Positions 1,106-11,193 of a stretch of 11,193 nucleotides of DNA are shown here, piece after piece. A program made the position numbers and the translations under genes. Within the stretch, counting starts at the first letter, position 1, and every line of letters starts with the position of its first letter. The notes below the pieces were generated by a model. That model did not search any database. It was given only the letters and a program-made list of their open reading frames with translations, and was not told the origin of the DNA. The stretch lies in the UHGV virus genome UHGV-1649846; one strand, given 5' to 3'. Source of the stretch: a virus.

Positions 1106-1395
1106 TGGTGAATTTACGTAAAGCGGCTAAAGGCCAGATGTGCCAGATCAGAATCCCTGGCTACTACAATCACAATCCCGAAACCTCTGTGCTGGCGCAT
1201 TACAGGCTGGCGGGGACGTGCGGAACAGCGACAAAACCACATGATATGCAGGCGGCGATAGCCTGTAGCTCATGCCACGATCTAATCGACGGGCGGGTAA
1301 AAACCAGCGATTACACCAAAGAAGAATTGCGCCTGATGCATGCTGAAGGGGTTTTTCGCACACAAGAAATCTGGAGAAAGAAAGGTCATTTATGA
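1105..1395 (+). CDS. Small Cys/His-rich nin-region protein, YbcO/DUF1364-like putative nuclease (assignment from memory)
   Basis: 96-aa ORF; start overlaps the upstream stop and its own stop overlaps the next start (ATGA at 1392-1395). Cys/His cluster (C..C..H, C..CH) suggests a metal-binding site. Confidence 0.5.
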   Translation: MVNLRKAAKGQMCQIRIPGYYNHNPETSVLAHYRLAGTCGTATKPHDMQAAIACSSCHDLIDGRVKTSDYTKEELRLMHAEGVFRTQEIWRKKGHL

Positions 1396-1934
1396 TTTAC
1401 CCAACGAATACAGGAAAAAGCGGAGAACACCTTCGCCTCACCACGCTGGAAAGTGTCTGGATTCAGGGAAAACTACGTATGTGGGGGCGCTGGTCGTATA
1501 TTGGCGGTGGCAGGTCAGGGAATATGTTCAATCAGTTGTTGGCATCCAAAAAACTGACGAAAACAGCCATTAATGAAGCCCTGCGCAGAATGAAAAAAGC
1601 GGGAATAGAGAAAGCTGAGCTGGAAGCGTTTTTGCGAGAGATGATCAACGGCAAGCAAAAGAGCTGGCTGGCGCATTGTACTGATGCAGAGGCGTTATGT
1701 ATTGATCGAGTCATAAGTGAGGTGCTGGCAGAGCATCCAGGATTGATTTGCATTCTCCGGCAACGCTATGAAGGGCGGGGGATGACTAAGCGCAAAATGG
1801 CTGAATTGCTAAATGATGCACACCCAGAGTGGTGTTTTAGCACATGCGAAAAACGGATTGCTAATTGGTTAGCTGTTGCTGAGTATGCCCTACATATTCC
1901 CATGCGTGAATCATTTGCTGAGAAAATGGCTTGA
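1392..1934 (+). CDS. Late-gene antiterminator Q-like protein
   Basis: 180-aa ORF, last gene of a coupled three-gene unit, followed at once by a strong intrinsic terminator and then a cargo/lysis region, which is the canonical position of Q. Trp-rich N-terminal motif (LRMWGRWSY) resembles the small Q family of E. coli prophages; C-terminal helix-turn-helix-like segment. Confidence 0.5.
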   Translation: MIYPTNTGKSGEHLRLTTLESVWIQGKLRMWGRWSYIGGGRSGNMFNQLLASKKLTKTAINEALRRMKKAGIEKAELEAFLREMINGKQKSWLAHCTDAEALCIDRVISEVLAEHPGLICILRQRYEGRGMTKRKMAELLNDAHPEWCFSTCEKRIANWLAVAEYALHIPMRESFAEKMA

Positions 1935-2117: not shown

Positions 2118-2361
2118 ATAGTTTCGGTGCTGTGTTTTTTTACAATATTGTGATAACACATTGCTGGCGGGAGTTTTGATATTTCTTGGCAGGGGCTGAT
2201 GATGCGTTATCCTGATGTCGTCAACTCATATAAAATGAGATGAGAGATCATTGCAGGGTGGTTTGTAATTCGCTGTTTAGCGGGACAATATGTTGTCTGA
2301 TACAAGACACCCGACGCCTCAGATTACTATAATAAAGACGAAGCATCCTTTGTATTGACCA

Positions 2362-2387
2362 ACCGCCTGTTTAGGCGGTTCTTTTTG
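2362..2387 (+). terminator. Intrinsic terminator
   Basis: Stem ACCGCCT (2362-2368), loop GTTT, stem AGGCGGT (2373-2379), followed by a T-rich run (TCTTTTT). Confidence 0.6.
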
Positions 2388-2918
2388 GGCTGGTTTATTG
2401 TATGCCAAATGATTATTAAAAAGGTTGTGTTAATAACAAAATCCGAAATAATATGCCTGCATATTTTTATCTTGCTTATATTCTGCATATTGTGCATAGC
2501 AGGCTCATCCCTGCAATCAAAACTGTATGATGAGTATTTTTTGTTTTCCTTTTTTCCAGTCATCTGATGATGACCTGCTTCTTTTTAATCCGGATCGACA
2601 TCAGTTTTTTAAGATAATTCCTGCGAGTTATATGCATAAATGCCACAAACTCCGCATTTTATGTGGTTGGGAGTTGCCGGGCGCGCAGTGAGTTTGCTAA
2701 GAAAACTCCTGCATGGTGAATCCCCCTGTGCGGTGGGGTGATACCATTAACCTTTTCTGTCGCCGACAGGTATCACGAACATTTTGTTCACCGGGAGGCA
2801 CCCGGCACCATGTACTTCAATAGATTCTCTCCACATTATGGATATTCTTTCAGAATATCCCACGCAGACTTTGTGTAAATGTTAACAAATGTGCGTTTTA
2901 TTTGATCTGATTCGCTGT

Positions 2919-2948
2919 TTGAGCGTCCAAAACAACGGTATATATAAT
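2919..2948 (+). promoter_or_regulatory. Sigma70-like promoter for the lipoprotein cassette
   Basis: -35 TTGAGC (2919-2924), 17-18 bp spacer, -10 ATATAA/TATAAT (2942-2948); about 30 bp upstream of the RBS GAGGAAAA and the ATG at 2978. Confidence 0.45.
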
Positions 2949-2977
2949 CCTTTACTATATGACATATGTGAGGAAAA

Positions 2978-3406
2978 ATGGGTTTTCGTAGCGCATCAAT
3001 TCTTACGTTGATTATTAGTGGGATTATTATCGGGTGCACTGATGCTGTATCGACAAATTATCATGACCGTACATCATATTACTCCGATAAAGCAATAGAG
3101 ACACAGTATGTGAGTTCATCTGAACGTACTTCTGATGTTAGTGAGGATATCCGTCTGTATGCCCATCAAATCAAGAGCGCCATCGAAAAACAGTTCGGGG
3201 ATGCGAGTAAGTATTCAGGAAAAGAGTGTACACTGAGAATGCATATGGCCCCGAATGGCCTTCTACTGGAGGTTAAAAGAGAAAGTGGAGACCTCGATTT
3301 ATGTCGTGAAGCGATGAATGCGATAAAGAATGCTGATATACCTGCCCCCCCTTCGCCGGAAGTATATAAAGTATTTCAAAATGGGGTGCTGGATTTTAAA
3401 CCCTGA
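2978..3406 (+). CDS. Lipoprotein with a TolA C-terminal domain (domain III)-like fold
   Basis: 142 aa. Signal peptide with lipobox IIGC (Cys20), then a ~50-residue Ser/Thr/Asp-rich linker, then ~85 residues that align closely with my recollection of the E. coli TolA C-terminus, including both conserved Cys and the terminal VLDFKP. RBS GAGGAAAA precedes the ATG. Confidence 0.8.
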   Translation: MGFRSASILTLIISGIIIGCTDAVSTNYHDRTSYYSDKAIETQYVSSSERTSDVSEDIRLYAHQIKSAIEKQFGDASKYSGKECTLRMHMAPNGLLLEVKRESGDLDLCREAMNAIKNADIPAPPSPEVYKVFQNGVLDFKP

Positions 3407-3469
3407 TATTTATTGTTTTGTAATAAACGGTTTCGGCTTAGGTTTGTTCTGACACAGCTACGGCACTGA

Positions 3470-3481
3470 GCTAAATTTAGC
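3470..3481. repeat. Perfect 12-bp palindrome GCTAAATTTAGC between the two lipoprotein genes
   Basis: Read directly. A second short palindrome GCTCTGAGC lies at 3491-3499. Confidence 0.5.
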
Positions 3482-3556
3482 GGATAGTCAGCTCTGAGCC
3501 AGTGGCGGACGTAACAACTACTATTGCTGAGATTTTAATGGATTGAGGAGCAAGAA

Positions 3557-3952
3557 GTGGGATTAAAGAAAATCGTTATGTTGACTTTTTGGGTCGGTTT
3601 TGTTGCGGGATGCACACCTTTACACCCTTCAGATTGCCACAAAACTACTGCTACAGGTAGTTGCAGTTCAGGACGCTGGGATGATCAGGATGAATGGGGG
3701 GCGCAAGCGCGGGGAATCAGAGCTGCAATTAATGCCAAACTTGATGAGCCGCATAACTGGAAAGGGAAAAAATGCAGGTTGCATATGGAATTCTCTCAGG
3801 ATGGCACGGCGTTAAAAATATCTACCAGTAACGGTGATAAAGCCTATTGCGAAGCGATAAAGTCCGCAGCTCATAAAGCCAAATTTCCGGCCTTCAACAA
3901 TCCGGAAGTCTACAGAGATTTTCAGAAATCTGGCTTTGACATGCGAGGTTAG
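3557..3952 (+). CDS. Second, more divergent TolA-domain-III-like lipoprotein (tandem paralogue)
   Basis: 131 aa from a GTG start 6 nt after a strong SD (GAGGAG 3545-3550). Lipobox VAGC (Cys19). C-terminal ~80 residues keep the TolA-III pattern GK.C.L...DG...G...C.A...A...P....VY..F with both Cys conserved. Confidence 0.7.
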   Translation: MGLKKIVMLTFWVGFVAGCTPLHPSDCHKTTATGSCSSGRWDDQDEWGAQARGIRAAINAKLDEPHNWKGKKCRLHMEFSQDGTALKISTSNGDKAYCEAIKSAAHKAKFPAFNNPEVYRDFQKSGFDMRG

Positions 3953-4077
3953 CTCTTCAATTACTATATCTCATTCATAGCAAACTGACAGATTTGATGA
4001 TGTTCTATATACGAAACCTGTGATGTCAAGTCTGAGCTAATACAAATAAACATAATATCAGAGAAATACATTTTATT

Positions 4078-4101
4078 AGCTCGCTACGGCGAGCTTTTTA
4101 T
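4078..4101 (+). terminator. Intrinsic terminator closing the lipoprotein cassette
   Basis: Stem AGCTCGC (4078-4084), loop TACG, stem GCGAGCT (4089-4095), then TTTTTA. Confidence 0.6.
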
Positions 4102-4203
4102 ATTGCATCGTCTCCAGCATATATATCAATTAAGGCTCTGATTGATGTGTCTGAAAGCCTACACATAATAACTATGCCATCCGTTCCGTGCGGAGGTGAG
4201 GCT

Positions 4204-4419
4204 ATGAAATCCATGGACAAAATTTCAACAGGCATTGCCTACGGCACCTCCGCAGGCAGTGCTGGCTACTGGTTTTTACAGTTGCTCGATAGAGTAACTC
4301 CGTCACAGTGGGCTGCAATCGGTGTGCTGGGTAGTCTGGTATTTGGCCTGCTGACGTACCTGACAAACCTTTATTTCAAGATTAAAGAAGATAAGCGCAA
4401 GGCTGCGAGAGGTGAATAA
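4204..4419 (+). CDS. Class II holin, phage 21 S-type pinholin with dual-start motif
   Basis: Begins [26 protein letters not shown]..., nearly the S21 sequence as I recall it. Met1 and Met4 give the antiholin/holin dual start. SD GGAGGTGAGG at 4191-4200. The track's longer ORF from 4147 lacks an RBS. Stop overlaps the endolysin start (TAATG). Confidence 0.85.
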
Positions 4420-4916
4420 TGCCTCCATCATTACGAAAAGTCGTTGCTGCTGCTATTGGTGGCGGAGCAATTGCTATAGCATCAGTGCTAATCACTGGCC
4501 CAAGTGGTAACGATGGTCTGGAAGGTGTCAGCTACATACCATACAAAGATATTGTTGGTGTATGGACTGTATGTCACGGGCATACAGGAAAAGACATCAT
4601 GCTCGGTAAAACGTATACCAAAGCAGAATGCAAAGCCCTCCTGAATAAAGACCTTGCCACGGTCGCCAGACAAATTAACCCGTACATCAAAGTCGATATA
4701 CCGGAAACAATGCGCGGCGCTCTTTACTCATTCGTTTACAACGTGGGTGCTGGCAATTTCAGAACATCGACGCTTCTTCGCAAAATAAACCAGGGCGATA
4801 TCAAAGGCGCATGTGATCAGCTACGTCGCTGGACATATGCTGGCGGTAAGCAATGGAAAGGTCTCATGACTCGTCGTGAGATTGAGCGTGAAATCTGTTT
4901 GTGGGGTCAGCAATGA
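4419..4916 (+). CDS. SAR endolysin (phage 21 R-type lysozyme)
   Basis: 165 aa. Gly/Ala-rich weakly hydrophobic N-terminal signal-arrest-release segment ([20 protein letters not shown]), then a lysozyme-like domain. Sits immediately after the holin and overlaps the Rz start (ATGA). Confidence 0.85.
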
Positions 4917-5377
4917 ACAGAGTAACCGCGATTATCTCCGCTCTGGTTATCTGCATCATCGTCTGCCTGTCATGGGCTGTTAATCATTACCGTGATAACG
5001 CCATTACCTACAAAGCCCAGCGCGACAAAAATGCCAGAGAACTGAAGCTGGCGAACGCGGCAATTACTGACATGCAGATGCGTCAGCGTGATGTTGCTGC
5101 GCTCGATGCAAAATACACGAAGGAGTTAGCTGATGCGAAAGCTGAAAATGATGCTCTGCGTGATGATGTTGCCGCTGGTCGTCGGCGGTTGCACATCAAA
5201 GCAGTCTGTCAGTCAGTGCGTGGAGCCACCACCGCCTCCGGCGTGGATAATGCAGCCTCCCCCCGACTGGCAGACACCGCTGAACGGGATTATTTCACCC
5301 TCCGGGAACGACTGGTAATGATGCAGGCCCAACTTGAAGGTGCTCAGCAATACATAACCGAGCAGTGTTTAAAGTAA
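4913..5377 (+). CDS. Rz-like i-spanin
   Basis: ATG at 4913 overlaps the endolysin stop. N-terminal transmembrane segment ([14 protein letters not shown]), then a coiled-coil-like charged region. Contains the Rz1 gene in the +1 frame. The track's GTG start at 4901 is rejected. Confidence 0.8.
5133..5318 (+). CDS. Rz1-like o-spanin, embedded in Rz in the +1 frame
   Basis: 61 aa. Signal peptide plus lipobox (LVVGGC), proline-rich mature part (PPPPPAW..PPPDW). SD AGGAG at 5121-5125, 7 nt before the ATG. Confidence 0.8.
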
Positions 5378-5514: not shown

Positions 5515-6972
5515 ATGAATACATCTCATGTAAGAGTTGTTACTCATATGTGTGGGTTCCTAGTTTGGCTCTATAGTCTTTCAATGTTGCCACCAATGGT
5601 TGTAGCATTGTTTTATAAAGAAAAAAGCCTGTTCGTTTTCTTTATAACTTTCGTTATATTTTTTTGCATTGGTGGCGGAGCGTGGTATACAACTAAGAAA
5701 TCTGGCATTCAATTACGTACCCGTGATGGGTTTATTATAATTGTAATGTTTTGGATTTTGTTTTCTGTTATTAGTGCATTCCCTTTATGGATTGACTCAG
5801 AACTTAATTTAACGTTCATTGATGCTCTGTTTGAAGGGGTTTCTGGAATAACAACAACAGGAGCAACTGTAATTGATGATGTTAGTTCATTACCTCGGGC
5901 ATATTTGTACTATCGGTCACAGTTAAATTTTATAGGTGGTTTAGGAGTTATTGTTCTAGCGGTTGCTGTATTGCCATTATTGGGTATTGGTGGTGCAAAG
6001 CTTTATCAGTCAGAAATGCCGGGGCCATTTAAGGATGACAAACTCACTCCCCGCCTGGCCGATACGTCACGGACACTGTGGATAACTTATTCTTTATTAG
6101 GTATTGCTTGTATTGTCTGTTATAGACTTGCAGGAATGCCTTTGTTTGATGCTATTTGTCACGGGATTTCCACAGTTTCGCTTGGTGGTTTCTCAACTCA
6201 TAGCGAGAGTATCGGATATTTTAATAACTATTTGGTTGAGCTGGTGGCTGGTTCTTTTTCCCTGCTATCGGCTTTCAACTTCACTCTTTGGTATATTGTT
6301 ATTAGCAGGAAAACGATAAAACCTTTAATCAGAGATATTGAACTTCGTTTCTTTCTGTTAATAGCCTTAGGGGTGATCATTGTTACCTCTTTCCAGGTCT
6401 GGCATATAGGTATGTATGACTTGCATGGAAGTTTTATTCATTCGTTTTTTCTTGCCAGCTCCATGCTCACTGATAATGGTTTAGCTACGCAGGATTATGC
6501 AAGTTGGCCCACGCACACGATAGTGTTTTTGCTGTTGTCAAGTTTCTTTGGGGGATGTATAGGTTCAACTTGTGGTGGAATTAAGTCACTTCGATTTCTT
6601 ATACTTTTCAAACAAAGCAAACACGAGATAAATCAGCTTTCTCATCCCAGAGCGTTGTTGAGTGTAAATGTAGGAGGGAAGATAGTTACAGATCGTGTAA
6701 TGAGGTCTGTATGGAGTTTCTTTTTTCTTTATACTCTCTTCACGGTGTTTTTTATACTGGTGTTAAATGGTATGGGATATGATTTTCTTACATCATTTGC
6801 AACAGTGGCTGCATGTATTAATAATATGGGATTAGGTTTTGGGGCTACTGCATCGTCATTCGGAGTGCTTAATGACATTGCAAAATGCTTAATGTGCATA
6901 GCTATGATTCTTGGTCGCCTTGAAATTTATCCTGTTATTATATTGTTTTCAGGTTTTTTTTGGCGCTCCTAA
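5515..6972 (+). CDS. trkG: TrkH/TrkG-family potassium uptake membrane protein
   Basis: 485 aa from the ATG at 5515 (MNTSHVRVV...), multi-pass membrane protein of the Trk K+ transporter family, matching my recollection of E. coli TrkG. Visibly AT-rich. An upstream in-frame TTG at 5497 preceded by SD AAGGTGG (5485-5490) would add 6 residues. Confidence 0.9.
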   Translation: MNTSHVRVVTHMCGFLVWLYSLSMLPPMVVALFYKEKSLFVFFITFVIFFCIGGGAWYTTKKSGIQLRTRDGFIIIVMFWILFSVISAFPLWIDSELNLTFIDALFEGVSGITTTGATVIDDVSSLPRAYLYYRSQLNFIGGLGVIVLAVAVLPLLGIGGAKLYQSEMPGPFKDDKLTPRLADTSRTLWITYSLLGIACIVCYRLAGMPLFDAICHGISTVSLGGFSTHSESIGYFNNYLVELVAGSFSLLSAFNFTLWYIVISRKTIKPLIRDIELRFFLLIALGVIIVTSFQVWHIGMYDLHGSFIHSFFLASSMLTDNGLATQDYASWPTHTIVFLLLSSFFGGCIGSTCGGIKSLRFLILFKQSKHEINQLSHPRALLSVNVGGKIVTDRVMRSVWSFFFLYTLFTVFFILVLNGMGYDFLTSFATVAACINNMGLGFGATASSFGVLNDIAKCLMCIAMILGRLEIYPVIILFSGFFWRS

Positions 6973-7058
6973 TATATGGCTGATTTATAATTGTGAGTTT
7001 AATATTATGTTGACTCACTCATTGATCCAATACCTAACTTTACCAGCAACACCTCCGT

Positions 7059-7090
7059 CCCCAGTAGCACTGGCTGCTGGGGTGCGTTTT
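7059..7090 (+). terminator. Possible terminator after trkG
   Basis: Stem CCCCAG (7059-7064), 12-nt loop, stem CTGGGG (7077-7082), then TGCGTTTT. The T-tract is offset, so weak. Confidence 0.35.
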
Positions 7091-7109
7091 ATTCATAAAG
7101 CAAGGCTGT

Positions 7110-8435
7110 ATGAGCGAGAAATTAAAGATAGTCTATCGCCCATTACAAGAATTGTCACCGTATGCGCACAACGCCAGGACGCACAGTACTGAGCAGGTGG
7201 CACAACTGGTAGAAAGTATTAAGCAATTCGGCTGGACTAATCCGGTGCTGATTGACGAAAAGGGCGAAATTATTGCGGGTCACGGTCGTGTTATGGCGGC
7301 TGAAATGCTCAAAATGGATTCTGTTCCGGTCATTGTTCTGTCTGGCCTGACGGATGAGCAGAAAAAGGCGTACCGCCTGGCAGATAATCGCCTGCCGATG
7401 AATGCTGGCTGGGATGAAGATCTGTTGCGGATGGAGCTGTCGGACCTAATCAATGCTGATTTTGATGTCTCCCTGACAGGCTTCATCCCGACAGAAATTG
7501 ATGAACTGTTGACGGATGTTTTGCCCGGTACCGGACGTTGCGTCGTGCTGGCTATACCGGGAAAATTTTTATCGTTGTTGATGATGAAGATAAGACACGG
7601 CATCAGTACATGGCTGAATTTGGTGAACAGGTGCTGGTGTTTTCCAAAGCCGATATCGCCAGTCGTTTTGACGAAGCCGATAATTTCTGTGACCGCCGCT
7701 CAATTTTTTACGCCCGTAATGCCTGTTTCGACCTGGCAAAACTGGTCGGGTGTAAATACTTCATTCAGCTCGATGATGATTATCACGAGTTCCAGTTTCG
7801 GGTGGATCGCAACTATGACCAGGCCTATTTTCCGATAAGGAAACTGGATGCGATCCTTTCTGAAATGCTGGCGTACTACGAATCAATACCTGCTCTTTCC
7901 ATCGCTATGTCGCAGGGCGGGGATTTTCTTGGTGACAATGGCGGCCATGCTTCGTGGGTGAAACGCAAGGCAATGAACAGCTTTATCTGTTCGGTTGATC
8001 GACCGTTCTCATTCATGGGGCGCATTAACGAGGATGTGAATACGTACACGAATCTCGGTCGCTGTGGTGAATTGTTTATGACGATCGGTGCTGTCCAGTT
8101 AGGGCAGAAACAGACGCAGAAAAACAGCGGCGGAATGACCGAGCTGTATCTGGATTCCGGAATCAGCGAAGGAACTGGGTATTGATGTTCGCGATATTTC
8201 CCCGGCTGAGCGGGCCAGCATGGATGGCGTGGTGGCCGGAGATACAACCTACAGGGAATGGTTTTTGCGTCAGCCTTACACCAGACAAAAACAGATTGTG
8301 GGGGAAACCCGAGCAAAGCTGATTCGGGATGGTGGTATGTCGCCAGATGAATTTTACACCGATAAAGGCGAATGGCTGACGCTGAAGCAGCTCCGTGAGC
8401 GTGATGCACAGGTATTCAGAAAAGCAGGGATTTAA
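7110..8435 (+). pseudogene. ParB/sulfiredoxin-like N-terminal domain gene, apparently disrupted by two frameshifts
   Basis: Frame 0 from the ATG at 7110 gives ~140 aa of plausible ParB-like sequence (..IIAGHGRVMAA..) and then degenerates. A second frame is open from 7505 to 8185 (DxD-containing segment) and the first frame reopens from 8139 to 8435. Three collinear overlapping segments with one terminator at the end suggest a single decayed gene of roughly 440 codons. Confidence 0.5.
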
Positions 8436-8454
8436 ATAAATCATTTATTACAAC

Positions 8455-8482
8455 AGGCTACCTTCGGGTGGCCTTTTTTATT
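8455..8482 (+). terminator. Strong intrinsic terminator (UUCG tetraloop)
   Basis: Stem AGGCTACC (8455-8462), loop TTCG, stem GGTGGCCT (8467-8474, one G-U pair), then TTTTTTATT. Confidence 0.7.
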
Positions 8483-8539
8483 GCTGCGATCCGGATGGTG
8501 AGCAGCGTAACTGTCGGAAGAATTAAACCAGGTACTAAT

Positions 8540-9304
8540 ATGAAACTGAAAACGGTCGAGATTAACGGAAAACAATACGCAGAAATTGATACTGCTGGCC
8601 TGCCAGTTTATGTGCACGACGATGGTAAAGAAATTGGCTTCGATGCACCGCTGGCGACAAAAAAAATTACAGAGCTTAATGGCGAGGCAAAAAATCATCG
8701 CCTGGCTAAAGAAGCTGCAGAGGAAAAACTGGCTAAGTTTGCCGCTATCGAAGACCCGAAGAAGGCGATCGAGGCACTGGAAATGCTGTCAAAAATCGAC
8801 CAGAAAAAGCTGCTCGATACGGGACAGGTTGACCAGGTTAAGGCAGAAATTACGAAAAATTTTCAGCAGCAATTAGATGAAGAAAAGCAACGCTCTCAGA
8901 TGCTGGAGAAGCAGCTTTACGATTCTATGATTGGCGGTAGTTTTGCGGGTTCAAAATATATTGCCGATAAAATTGCGATCCCGGCAGATTTATTACAAGC
9001 CCGCTTCGGGCAGGCATTCAAAGTGGAAGAAGGGAGGATCGTTGCTTATGACGCTTCCGGCAACAAAATTTATTCCCGCGCGAAGCCTGGCGAACTGGCG
9101 CAGTTTGATGAGGCGCTGGAGTTCCTTGTCGAAAATTACCCTCAGAAAGACTACATCCTGAAAGCCAGTGGCAACAATGGCGGCGGCTCCCGTCCGACAC
9201 AGCATGATATTGGTCAGAAAACGATGAAACGCTCTGCTTTTGATGCACTGGATGTTGCAGGTAAGCAAAACGCATTGAAAGACGGTATCACAATCGTTGA
9301 TTAA
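8540..9304 (+). CDS. Hypothetical phage protein, K/E-rich with predicted coiled-coil; possibly scaffolding or head-assembly-like
   Basis: 254 aa from the ATG at 8540 (MKLKTVEINGK...), preceded by AGGT. The track's earlier start at 8468 lies inside the terminator hairpin. Central segment rich in K/E/Q/A heptad-like sequence. No confident family assignment. Confidence 0.45.
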   Translation: MKLKTVEINGKQYAEIDTAGLPVYVHDDGKEIGFDAPLATKKITELNGEAKNHRLAKEAAEEKLAKFAAIEDPKKAIEALEMLSKIDQKKLLDTGQVDQVKAEITKNFQQQLDEEKQRSQMLEKQLYDSMIGGSFAGSKYIADKIAIPADLLQARFGQAFKVEEGRIVAYDASGNKIYSRAKPGELAQFDEALEFLVENYPQKDYILKASGNNGGGSRPTQHDIGQKTMKRSAFDALDVAGKQNALKDGITIVD

Positions 9305-9350
9305 CACATTTGTCAGCTTCCGGATGGGAGCTGGTGTCAGGGCTGGATAG

Positions 9351-11193
9351 CTCATTACTCCATCTAAGGGACGCTTCCTGAACAACATTAACGCGGTCAG
9401 TAAAACAGACTTTGCTGATAAGCGTGGTATGCGTTATGTGCGGGTTAACGCTCCTGCAGGTGCAACATCTGGAAAATATTACCCTGTTGTTGTTATGCGT
9501 TCTGCTGGCTCAGTAAGCGAACTGGCATCAAGGGTCATTATCACCACGGCAACGCGAACCGCAGGCGATCCGATGAATAACTGCGAGTTTAACGGATTTG
9601 TTATGCCTGGTGGCTGGACTGACAGGGGGCGTTATGCTTATGGAATGTTCTGGCAATATCAAAACAATGAACGAGCCATCCACTCAATAATGATGAGTAA
9701 TAAGGGCGATGATTTGCGCTCTGTGTTCTATGTTGATGGCGCTGCTTTCCCTGTTTTTGCGTTTATCGAAGATGGCCTGTCAATATCCGCACCTGGTGCT
9801 GATCTCGTTGTTAATGATACGACCTATAAGTTTGGGGCAACAAATCCGGCGACTGAATGTATCGCGGCGGACGTTATCCTTGATTTTAAGAGTGGGCGTG
9901 GTTTTTATGAGTCTCATTCGTTAATCGTTAACGATAACTTGTCGTGCAAAAAACTTTTTGCCACAGACGAAATTGTAGCGCGTGGTGGTAATCAGATTCG
10001 AATGATAGGTGGGGAGTATGGGGCATTATGGCGTAATGATGGCGCTAAAACTTACCTGCTGCTTACCAATCAAGGTGATGTTTATGGTGGCTGGAATACA
10101 TTAAGACCGTTTGCTATTGATAACGCAACCGGCGAACTGGTTATTGGAACCAAACTGTCCGCAAGTCTGAACGGTAATGCATTAACAGCAACAAAGCTGC
10201 AAACGCCAAGACTGGTTTCTGGTGTTGAGTTTGATGGTTCCAAAGATATTACTTTAACCGCCGCGCATGTGGCTGCTTTTGCCAGAAGGGCAACGGATAC
10301 ATATGCCGATGCGGATGGTGGCGTTCCCTGGAATGCCGAATCAGGCGCTTACAATGTCACCCGCTCTGGCGACAGCTATATTCTGGTTAACTTCTATACC
10401 GGAGTCGGAAGTTGCCGGACCCTGCAGATGAAGGCGCATTACAGAAATGGTGGTCTGTTCTACCGTTCTTCAAGAGATGGCTATGGTTTTGAGGAAGACT
10501 GGGCAGAAGTTTATACCTCGAAAAATCTTCCACCAGAAAGCTACCCAGTCGGCGCACCAATCCCGTGGCCATCAGATACCGTTCCGTCTGGTTATGCCCT
10601 GATGCAGGGGCAGACTTTTGACAAATCTGCCTACCCGAAACTTGCTGCCGCTTATCCGTCAGGCGTGATCCCTGATTTGCGTGGCTGGACGATTAAGGGC
10701 AAGCCCGCCAGTGGTCGTGCCGTATTGTCTCAGGAACAGGATGGCATTAAATCGCATACCCACAGCGCCAGCGCATCCAGTACGGATTTGGGGACGAAAA
10801 CCACATCGTCGTTTGATTACGGCACTAAATCCACGAATAACACTGGTGCGCATACCCATAGTTTAAGTGGCAGCACGAATGCAGCTGGTAATCACAGCCA
10901 TAGAGATGGCCGTCGATTTAACCCCAGTGTTTTTAAAGATACTTATCAATATGGTTATACAAGCTCAGGTCAAAATACCTGGGGTGTACAAGGCTCAGTA
11001 GGTATGTCTACGGGGTGGTTAGCGAATACCAGTACAGATGGTAATCATAGCCATTCACTGTCCGGCACAGCAGCATCTGCAGGTGCACACGCGCATACTG
11101 TCGGTATTGGTGCTCATACGCACTCCGTTGCGATTGGTTCACATGGACACACCATCACCGTTAACGCTGCTGGTAACGCGGAAAACACCGTCA
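9351..11193 (+). CDS. stf: Side tail fibre protein, 5'-incomplete and running off the right edge of the window
   Basis: Frame 0 is open from the stop at 9348-9350 to the window end, with no RBS-supported start (first ATG at 9429). The last ~210 residues match the lambda Stf C-terminal region as I recall it ([58 protein letters not shown].. with GAHTHS/GNHSHS repeats ..[15 protein letters not shown]). It is absent from the ORF track because no stop codon falls inside the window. Confidence 0.85.

Follow-up and report, generated by a model that had tools for sequence, protein, structure and literature searches.

Tandem prophage lipoproteins with a free TolA domain III: candidate decoys for bacteriocin and filamentous phage import

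A tandem pair of TolA domain III lipoprotein genes

The stretch of DNA analysed here (hereafter the window) comprises 11,193 nucleotides of UHGV virus genome UHGV-1649846 and is the late region of a Rac-like defective lambdoid E. coli prophage. Our subject is a pair of its genes, gene 1 and gene 2, each of which encodes a lipoprotein-type precursor ending in domain III of TolA (TolA-III). TolA is the periplasmic host protein whose tip colicins and filamentous phages use for entry. The original prediction, made from the letters of the window alone, described gene 1 as a prophage lipoprotein that is a lipid-anchored copy of TolA-III and a candidate periplasmic decoy or exclusion factor. An open reading frame (ORF) lies at exactly 2978..3406 and the sequence quoted for it is correct; the prophage location was also borne out, with a Q-like gene upstream and a lysis cassette downstream. 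The gene had been treated as a single one, but it is the first of two tandem paralogues, and the second begins 150 bp downstream of it. The features of the pair are as follows.

2978..3406, plus strand: gene 1, ATG start, 142-amino-acid lipoprotein precursor with a C-terminal TolA domain III
2978..3037, plus strand: gene 1 lipoprotein signal peptide, residues 1-20, lipobox I-I-G-C20, read from the sequence
3038..3127, plus strand: gene 1 tether, residues 21-50, Ser/Thr/Tyr-rich, predicted disordered, fast-evolving
3128..3403, plus strand: gene 1 TolA domain III, residues 51-142, from model confidence (94-98, below), Foldseek and contact mapping
3345..3351, plus strand: C7 homopolymer in gene 1, within the P-A-P-P-S-P codons
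3557..3952, plus strand: gene 2, GTG start, 131-amino-acid paralogous lipoprotein, lipobox V-A-G-C19, divergent TolA domain III

Gene 1 has a GAGGA ribosome-binding site 5′ of its ATG, and its product begins with MGFR, SASILTLIISGIII and G-C20, that is, a positive n-region, a hydrophobic core and the lipobox I-I-G-C, which fits the lipoprotein signal pattern of positive n-region, h-region and lipobox [LVI][ASTVI][GAS]C. The residues after the lipobox Cys are Thr21 (+2) and Asp22 (+3). From the Thr at +2, sorting to the outer membrane had been proposed, and by the +2 rule the gene 1 product is indeed predicted to be lipid-anchored there. The C-terminal part matched Pfam TolA_C (PF06519; E 2.4e-23, 82.6 bits against a cut-off of 25), and BLASTP aligned it without gaps to residues 336-421 of K-12 TolA with 52 of 86 positions identical (60%) and 74% positives (E 7e-31). 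This agrees with the initial estimate of about 55-60% identity, for which the C-terminus given for E. coli TolA is, letter for letter, that of the K-12 tolA translation. With phmmer, the PDB TolA-III chains 1s62, 3qdp, 2x9a and 1tol were matched at E 5e-28 to 3e-27. Conservation of both cysteines and of the terminal DFKP also held: the pair C363/C388 of TolA corresponds to C84/C109 of gene 1, and the terminal β3 strand L138-D-F-K-P142 is identical to L417-D418-F419-K420-P421 of TolA.

What precedes the domain is unlike TolA. The transmembrane domain I, through which TolA couples to TolQ-TolR, is replaced in gene 1 by the lipoprotein signal peptide, and the Ala/Lys/Glu-rich helical domain II by the disordered tether of about 30 residues, so that gene 1 lacks both domains and with them the coupling to TolQR and the proton-motive force. 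The gene is sited between the phage Q-like gene and the holin, outside the tol-pal operon (ybgC-tolQRA-tolB-pal-cpoB). Among NCBIfam models, PRK09510 scored 107.8 bits, under its cut-off of 213, with an alignment spanning positions 293-386 of 387, and TIGR02794 scored 75.6 bits, nominally over its cut-off of 59.45, with an alignment spanning 265-362 of 362; the latter score probably explains the 'tolA' label on gene 1. Taken together, the lipobox, Pfam and BLASTP results and the fold described below confirm that gene 1 encodes a complete, stand-alone TolA-III on a lipoprotein-type precursor, as originally claimed, and not TolA proper.

The gene 2 product begins with VGLKK, IVMLTFWVGFVA and G-C19, followed by Thr at +2, and is likewise predicted by the +2 rule to be sorted to the outer membrane. 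Its domain matched TolA_C (PF06519) with E 1.3e-14 and 54.6 bits against the cut-off of 25, and is more diverged, with 27 of 86 positions identical to TolA and 29% identity to gene 1. Between lipobox and domain lies the segment C-x-PLHPS-x-C-HKTTATGS-C-SSGRWDDQDEWG, which has two extra cysteines and is kept from E. coli to Serratia. This segment is more tightly constrained than the TolA domain of the same protein, which indicates that it is more than a spacer and implies a separate binding partner. In RefSeq, gene 2 is made to begin at an internal ATG (375 nt; 9879-10253 of the stretch examined), and the positively charged n-region is thereby cut off. The GTG at 3557 is preceded by a GAGGAG ribosome-binding site, and we favour this start over the RefSeq call because the equivalent codon is the ATG start of a plasmid orthologue.

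Predicted structure and ligand-binding edges

The gene 1 product was modelled with AlphaFold from a 42-sequence alignment; a single-sequence run was poor (predicted local distance difference test, pLDDT, of 56). In the model, residues 51-142 have a pLDDT of 94-98 and residues 19-46 fall below 50, and the domain adopts an α-β-β-α-α-β fold (helix 49-72, strands 84-90 and 96-104, helices 106-118 and 127-133, strand 135-140). Foldseek superposed it on 2x9a_B, an E. coli TolA-III chain, with a template modelling (TM) score of 0.96 and a root-mean-square deviation of 0.6 Å over 88 columns; TM scores were 0.82 to 3qdr_A and 0.84 to 3qdp, and 1tol was also matched. In 2x9a TolA-III is bound to g3p of phage If1 and in 3qdr to colicin A; 3qdp is the free domain and 1tol a fusion with M13 g3p. 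The likeness of the model to TolA-III far exceeds chance, and so the similarity that the original prediction had left to a formal search and a superposition stands on both (E 7e-31 and TM 0.96 to a solved TolA-III). A search of viral structures in BFVD gave nothing significant for the gene 1 model.

To compare ligand-binding edges, we mapped onto both genes the TolA contact residues published for the colicin A complex (PMC3365938) and for the competition between colicin N (ColN), g3p and TolB (PMC4339652). The β3 strand of TolA is the β-augmentation site for g3p-N1, ColN and the N-terminus of TolB, and the substitutions D418P or K420P abolish binding of all three (PMC4339652), while colicin A binds TolA-III at the β2 edge (PMC3365938). 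At the colicin A site, gene 1 is identical at L375, L376, K379 and K396, conservatively changed at D377E and I378V, and altered at K368H, P380R and L392M. Gene 2 is altered at K368E, L375A, D377K, K379S, P380T, L392K and K396H; its C-terminal strand F-D-M-R-G is rich in β-formers and retains D418, and its cysteines are C73/C98. Since the colicin A site is mostly lost in gene 2 but largely kept in gene 1, the two paralogues probably differ in ligand range.

The original prediction had named as partners of TolA-III the g3p of filamentous phages, the group A colicins, Pal, TolB and CpoB. CpoB is a partner of TolA domain II. For the others, g3p and the colicins stand, with affinities of about 1 μM for g3p, ColN and colicin A, and TolB stands but is a weak ligand with a dissociation constant (Kd) of 40-200 μM (PMC3365938, PMC4339652, PMC7391070). 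Pal does not: direct binding of TolA-III to Pal was not reproduced with purified proteins, and the purported Pal residues are the TolB site (PMC7391070). Because TolB binds so weakly, the alternative that such a protein acts by perturbing Tol-Pal has to be re-weighed.

Family size and phylogeny

An exhaustive profile search of 1.84 billion representatives returned 591 relatives at E ≤1e-3. Among the best 150 of these 591, 97 are at most 190 amino acids long and at least 60 of the 97 carry a clear lipobox; most of the short relatives in this best 150 end in a strand F-K-N-A-x-L-D-F-K-P/L. Gene 2 has orthologues of 78-99% identity, grouped into 368 clusters that come from E. coli, Shigella, Citrobacter, Enterobacter, Klebsiella, Raoultella and Serratia. 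The source names of the relatives are generic ('TolA protein', 'colicin import membrane protein', 'TolA C-terminal domain-containing protein'). An automatic Gene Ontology (GO) term, 'bacteriocin transport', on TolA-III lipoproteins is a domain-derived artefact.

In an identity matrix and neighbour-joining tree, genuine enterobacterial TolA-III formed one tight clade (56-98% identical), and the stand-alone lineages fell outside it on long separate branches. Each stand-alone lineage shares more identity with genuine TolA-III (44-63%) than with its stand-alone counterparts, and gene 1 is closest to Escherichia TolA (60%, versus 41-55% in other genera). The branching indicates that the stand-alone lineages are old, fast-evolving offshoots and not recent debris. 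We do not claim mimicry that tracks the host or repeated recent capture, for which the signal is weak for gene 1 and absent for Serratia. A candidate for a further short E. coli type turned out to be a fragment of true tolA from broken assemblies.

With tblastn, mEp460 was the sole match among 50,697 phage records, which makes isolated phages a poor comparison set. The only PHROG match, phrog_5772 ('unknown function'), contains both window proteins.

Conservation and mobility of the gene pair

The pair belongs to a mosaic module shared with phage mEp460. The module, the signals that flank the pair and the lysis genes that follow are listed here.

2787..4420, no strand assigned: mosaic module found at 99% identity in phage mEp460 (blastn), comprising the holin and both TolA-like genes
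2919..2948, plus strand: promoter-like site TTGAGC-18-TATAAT, 10 of 12 consensus positions matched, 29 nt before the gene 1 ATG
4078..4095, plus strand: terminator-like hairpin separating gene 2 from the holin, AGCTCGC-TACG-GCGAGCT and then TTTTAT
4147..4419, plus strand: holin (Pfam Phage_holin_2_1)
4419..4916, plus strand: lysozyme (Pfam Phage_lysozyme)
4901..5377, plus strand: Rz, with Rz1 embedded at 5133..5318 (Pfam Phage_lysis, Rz1)

Around the shared module the backbone of mEp460 is different, with other Q genes and another endolysin. Because of the promoter-like site, the terminator-like hairpin and the occurrence of the same module in a different backbone, genes 1 and 2 are a candidate two-gene accessory cassette ('moron'). 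The pair is intact although the prophage is heavily decayed and most of its morphogenesis genes are gone. A gene 1 allele of 66% identity occurs alone in prophages of the enterohaemorrhagic E. coli (EHEC) type, in the order Q, two tRNAs, gene 1 allele, nanS-p, holin (around 7566-8429 of a stretch examined), and it occupies the slot held by stx (stxAB) in Stx phages. Just 5′ of this allele lie an AraC-type regulator and a TfpB-like gene, and a DUF1378 gene is found between nanS-p and the holin.

Against the 66%-identical allele, the ratio of nonsynonymous to synonymous substitution rates (dN/dS) of gene 1 was 0.36 overall, 0.245 in the domain and 0.57 in the linker (residues 21-55). For gene 2 it was 0.08-0.13 against plasmid, Enterobacter and Serratia orthologues. 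These values indicate that both genes are under purifying selection, gene 2 more strongly. All 18 family members compared have the lipobox Cys, and G19 and C20 show few exceptions or none in the family. Gene 1 is present in 776 of 5426 complete E. coli genomes (14%), and about 4000 of the 5426 had no match. In 729 of the 776 (94%) the sequence is at least 99% identical across 3318-3380, which spans the C7 run, the one slippery element of the gene. A minority of database variants are frameshifted at this run, lose β3 and read into the ORF at 3330..3452. Phase variation at the C7 run was rejected as a major feature, the run being unchanged in 94% of genomes.

RefSeq, through its annotation pipeline PGAP, flags gene 1 (9447-9707 of the stretch examined) as a tolA pseudogene ('incomplete; missing N-terminus'), also where the genome matches the window at 100% identity; gene 1 would then be a decaying fragment of a captured tolA. 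Besides the flag, the PRK09510 score under the cut-off and the few frameshifted variants would suit such a fragment. It would not be expected, however, to be a complete ORF with its own ribosome-binding site, ATG and a lipoprotein signal peptide foreign to tolA, and the constrained domain, the invariant lipobox Cys, the unchanged slippery run and the same architecture in at least 60 of the 97 short representatives all argue against decay. A pseudogene is thus highly improbable; it is contradicted by the analysis and effectively excluded.

Relatives on plasmids and chromosomes

The family proved not to be prophage-specific, as gene 1 had been taken to be, but is spread over prophages, chromosomes and plasmids. 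With tblastn, the TolA-III domain was found on 1307 plasmids. About 370 of the relatives' carriers are small Klebsiella ColRNAI plasmids with a cloacin/ColE3-type bacteriocin (PF03515, PF11570 and PF09000) and its immunity and lysis genes. On these plasmids, a 123-amino-acid TolA-III lipoprotein (…LLLTAC|KHS…, end FKNAPLDFRP) adjoins the bacteriocin operon in divergent orientation, and its gene overlaps (ATGA) a gene for a 121-amino-acid TonB_C-domain protein with a cleavable signal peptide; in one plasmid of 10,060 bp the two genes lie at 9206-9939. Judged by domain content, the Klebsiella pair would amount to free copies of both bacteriocin import hubs, side by side. In Enterobacter hormaechei, a 140-amino-acid TolA-III lipoprotein (2276-2698) on the ColE1-like plasmid CP123604.1 adjoins a colicin with ColA_N and pore-forming domains, the ColA_N match lying at residues 52-94. 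The Klebsiella and Enterobacter bacteriocin plasmids are of types unrelated to each other. The CP123604.1 assembly is a head-to-tail dimer, and its TolA-III gene lies between mbeD and the exc1 exclusion genes.

This company could also point to a role in release, the main rival of the decoy function discussed below. A free TolA-III competing for the N-terminus of TolB would produce a partial tol phenotype, and a leaky, hypervesiculating outer membrane would speed phage lysis and release of progeny, or the release of bacteriocin. Artificial export of TolA-III renders E. coli leaky, an effect exploited in the laboratory (PMC6195910, which cites Levengood-Freyermuth 1993 and Wan & Baneyx 1998), and on the Col plasmids bacteriocin and lysis genes neighbour the TolA-III gene. 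The TonB_C partner on the Klebsiella plasmids, however, has no known role in leakiness and yet fits an import block. In the window the cassette is flanked by the Q-like gene and the holin, and the holin is part of what is shared with mEp460, but the terminator-like hairpin separates cassette from holin and the prophage already has the spanin pair Rz/Rz1. The TolB-binding β3 strand is fully conserved in gene 1, but the weak affinity for TolB means that high expression would be needed. Strongly selected orthologues occur in chromosomes and on conjugative plasmids with no lysis genes nearby, and gene 1 is intact in 14% of E. coli genomes, in a decayed prophage that could hardly lyse productively. 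On balance we regard a destabiliser of the outer membrane as rather unlikely.

Other relatives are carried by larger plasmids. Gene 2 orthologues occur on about 600 IncI1/IncK/IncB-O plasmids. On plasmids of these types they come right after the nikA/nikB relaxase genes (approximately 6995-7431 of the stretches examined), and a further orthologue maps to the psiB-psiA-hok region of pO157 EDL933, 5′ of toxB (5815-6246 of the stretch examined). Klebsiella IncF plasmids carry a 144-amino-acid lipoprotein version adjoining a thioredoxin-fold gene. TolA-dependent filamentous phages use pili of the IncI and F types as their receptors, and the IncI pilus-specific phage If1 uses TolA-III.

Among chromosomal copies, that of Enterobacter is a solitary gene with fixed synteny. 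In Serratia marcescens, a gene 2-type homologue lies between nrdDG and a pair of GmrSD_N (DUF262) and HEPN genes (8001-10736), a neighbourhood that, from its domains, resembles a defence island. Other Serratia copies adjoin icd, a gene at which lambdoid phages integrate, and in one case a prophage is the immediate neighbour.

A physiological role in the envelope would account for some of these locations. The tethered TolA-III would then act on Tol-Pal, TolB-Pal or some other partner and serve envelope homeostasis, conjugation or entry exclusion, on behalf of host or plasmid and not aimed at invaders. Conserved chromosomal copies with fixed synteny in Enterobacter and Serratia fit this role, as do the positions right after nikB on IncI-type plasmids and, on the Enterobacter plasmid, between genes for mobilisation and for exclusion, and the gene 2 N-terminal segment, tighter than its TolA domain, implies an additional specific partner. 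The distribution, however, is patchy and accessory (gene 1 in 14% of E. coli genomes and in 1 of 50,697 phage records), and a spread over phages, plasmids and islands is typical of conflict genes. Some of the Serratia copies themselves sit by icd, where lambdoid phages integrate, and one of them borders a prophage, and no envelope pathway is known to need a second TolA-III. An envelope factor is in our judgement unlikely.

A possible decoy function

We propose, as the explanation we prefer and at about even chances, that genes 1 and 2 encode non-energised decoys that intercept group A bacteriocins and the g3p of filamentous phages. Both proteins would be held by a Lol-sorted lipid anchor in the inner leaflet of the outer membrane and would carry a free TolA-III on a tether, with no link to the TolQ-TolR motor because domains I and II are missing in both. 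Just beneath the outer membrane, the anchored domain would offer the β-strand-augmentation edges of TolA-III, namely the β3 edge for g3p-N1 (Ff/If1), colicin N and the TolB N-terminus and, in gene 1, also the β2 edge for colicin A. Incoming group A translocation domains and g3p could then be captured by the copy with about micromolar affinity. Colicin and phage import requires full-length TolA energised by TolQR. Because the copy is not energised, the ligand would be trapped and not imported; held in a dead-end complex with the uncoupled copy, it would leave the cell tolerant. Modest expression may block invaders while sparing Tol-Pal, because TolB binds TolA-III 40-200 times more weakly. The paralogues would cover different ligand sets, gene 2 being without the colicin A site and having the extra Cys-loop segment.

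The decoy proposal gains real comparative support from the relatives that lie by Tol-dependent bacteriocin operons on two unrelated plasmid types. The binding edges kept in gene 1, the purifying selection on both genes, the moron-like layout, the Serratia copy by the GmrSD and HEPN genes and the laboratory precedent of exported TolA-III are counted in its favour as well. Interception at import hubs would also fit better than a role in leakiness, because a secreted TonB_C is paired with TolA-III on bacteriocin plasmids and because copies occur on plasmids whose pili attract TolA-dependent phages.

Several points weigh against the proposal. Many Enterobacter and Serratia relatives are plain chromosomal genes with no obvious link to a mobile element or bacteriocin, and these would also fit a housekeeping envelope role. 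The association with bacteriocin plasmids could equally reflect help in toxin release. Since the cassette is also in the late operon, its main expression could be lytic, when tolerance would be of little use, and its own promoter-like and terminator-like sites are consensus matches only. Gene 2 has diverged from TolA at most of the mapped contact positions, and host TolA is not clearly tracked by the stand-alone lineages, apart from the modest preference of gene 1 for Escherichia. A search of PADLOC-DB v2 gave no family match at E ≤1 for either protein.

A broader reading, in which mobile elements of Enterobacterales (lambdoid prophages, bacteriocin plasmids, IncI/IncF conjugative plasmids and chromosomal islands) carry widespread 'import-hub decoys', that is, free tips of TolA (lipid-anchored) and, on some plasmids, of TonB (secreted), is one we put forward tentatively and think somewhat short of probable. 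Such decoys would catch bacteriocin translocation domains and the g3p of pilus-specific filamentous phages in the periplasm. If true, it would provide broad tolerance independent of the toxin domain, unlike receptor loss, immunity proteins and receptor-masking lipoproteins, and on conjugative plasmids it would offset the vulnerability to phages that comes from their own pili.

If the decoy function holds for the prophage genes, it would represent a new protection logic between specific immunity proteins and receptor loss, with a co-receptor domain as bait. Part of the reason why natural isolates of E. coli and Klebsiella are so insensitive to Tol-dependent bacteriocins could lie here, a point relevant to bacteriocin and phage therapeutics. 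The decoy function could also explain how plasmids that make pili contain the cost imposed by male-specific filamentous phages. Systematic mis-annotation ('tolA', pseudogene, the 'bacteriocin transport' GO term) hides the family from function-based surveys. The family also offers natural, diversified TolA-III variants for dissecting the specificity of β-strand augmentation.

Comparison with known systems

With E. coli TolA-III (approximately residues 314-421; 1TOL, 1S62, 3QDP/3QDR, 2X9A) gene 1 shares the fold, the disulfide pair, β3 and most colicin A contacts, but, unlike TolA, it is prophage-encoded and lies outside the genuine TolA-III clade as well as outside the tol-pal operon. The laboratory export constructs likewise present a free periplasmic TolA-III uncoupled from the motor and provide a precedent for a dominant-negative or decoy effect; they are artificial, soluble and overexpressed, whereas the window genes are natural, predicted to be lipid-anchored, tethered, diverged, selected and duplicated. 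Exported TolA-III is reported, in the 1993 work of Levengood-Freyermuth, Click and Webster, to give tolerance to colicins and phages as well.

Cor (phi80/N15/HK022) and Llp (T5) are phage outer-membrane lipoproteins that inactivate FhuA and cause superinfection exclusion. Like them, gene 1 encodes a small phage accessory lipoprotein that is predicted to reside in the inner leaflet of the outer membrane and is proposed to keep competitors from entering. Cor and Llp, however, bind and plug the host receptor, whereas the gene 1 product would imitate the co-receptor of the host and sequester the ligand of the invader. Llp is described in the preprint bioRxiv 10.64898/2026.03.26.714494. PHROG matching gave no homology of the window proteins to exclusion lipoproteins of the Cor/Llp type.

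Another parallel is the immunity of Ff-infected cells. In work of Boeke, Model and Zinder in 1982, host-made g3p is reported to occupy TolA and to give tolerance to colicins and superinfection. The same TolA-III/ligand interface would be involved and Tol import shut, but there the ligand blocks the receptor and Tol-Pal is disturbed, whereas a decoy would titrate the ligand and need not disturb Tol-Pal. A periplasmic C-terminal fragment of TonB is dominant-negative on TonB-dependent uptake, and the Klebsiella plasmids carry a natural secreted TonB_C. Such a fragment and the colicin immunity proteins resemble the proposed decoys in protecting from bacteriocins; immunity proteins neutralise one cognate toxic domain, whereas a hub decoy would act upstream and broadly, on the whole import route.

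The original prediction knew of no characterised system of this type, and none was found in the literature searched, PADLOC, PHROGs or NCBIfam names. No stand-alone TolA-III borne by a phage or plasmid was found described in the literature searched, which was mostly open journals, and an older description is possible. In the 2020 Tol-Pal review (PMC7391070) 'prophage' and 'plasmid-encoded' have zero occurrences each, and the MBE 2025 survey of TolA/TonB evolution makes no mention of stand-alone TolA-III lipoproteins. Four apparent leads in the literature proved false, namely the phage name 'Tolavirus', the 'putative TolA box' of a colicin, and papers on Salmonella Hadar and on an O157 soil microarray. 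Lipoproteins by which mobile elements keep competitors out are known, and what would be new is a captured, uncoupled copy of a host periplasmic co-receptor.

Prophage setting and transcription signals

Upstream of the cassette lie DUF1367, YbcO and the Q-like DUF1133 gene (1392..1934), followed by these features.

2304..2333, plus strand: promoter-like site AAGACA-18-TATAAT, 10 of 12 matches in a consensus scan
2361..2380, plus strand: terminator-like hairpin with T-run, stem of 8 pairs including 5 GC pairs, then CTTTTTGG
2681..2867, plus strand: match to STnc100 (Rfam, gammaproteobacterial small RNA), 83.4 bits against a gathering threshold of 47, E 4.5e-17

The hairpin, a strong one, is about 30 nt past the promoter-like site, and 2304..2380 is a candidate for the late promoter pR′ together with tR′, at which Q would antiterminate; the leader would be very short, and the promoter is proposed because of its position 3′ of the Q-like DUF1133 gene. 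An STnc100 match lies directly 5′ of gene 1 in mEp460 too (5891-6081, 114 bits), and the mosaic junction with mEp460 (2787) falls inside the match in the window. A tRNA scan of the window found none.

On the 3′ side of the lysis cassette are trkG, broken ParB-like genes and stfR. The ParB/Srx-like region past trkG (7110-8435) is split into overlapping ORFs in different frames (7110..7838, 7538..8185 and 8220..8435), and in a near-identical genome this region is broken by IS3 (13852-15014 of the stretch examined).

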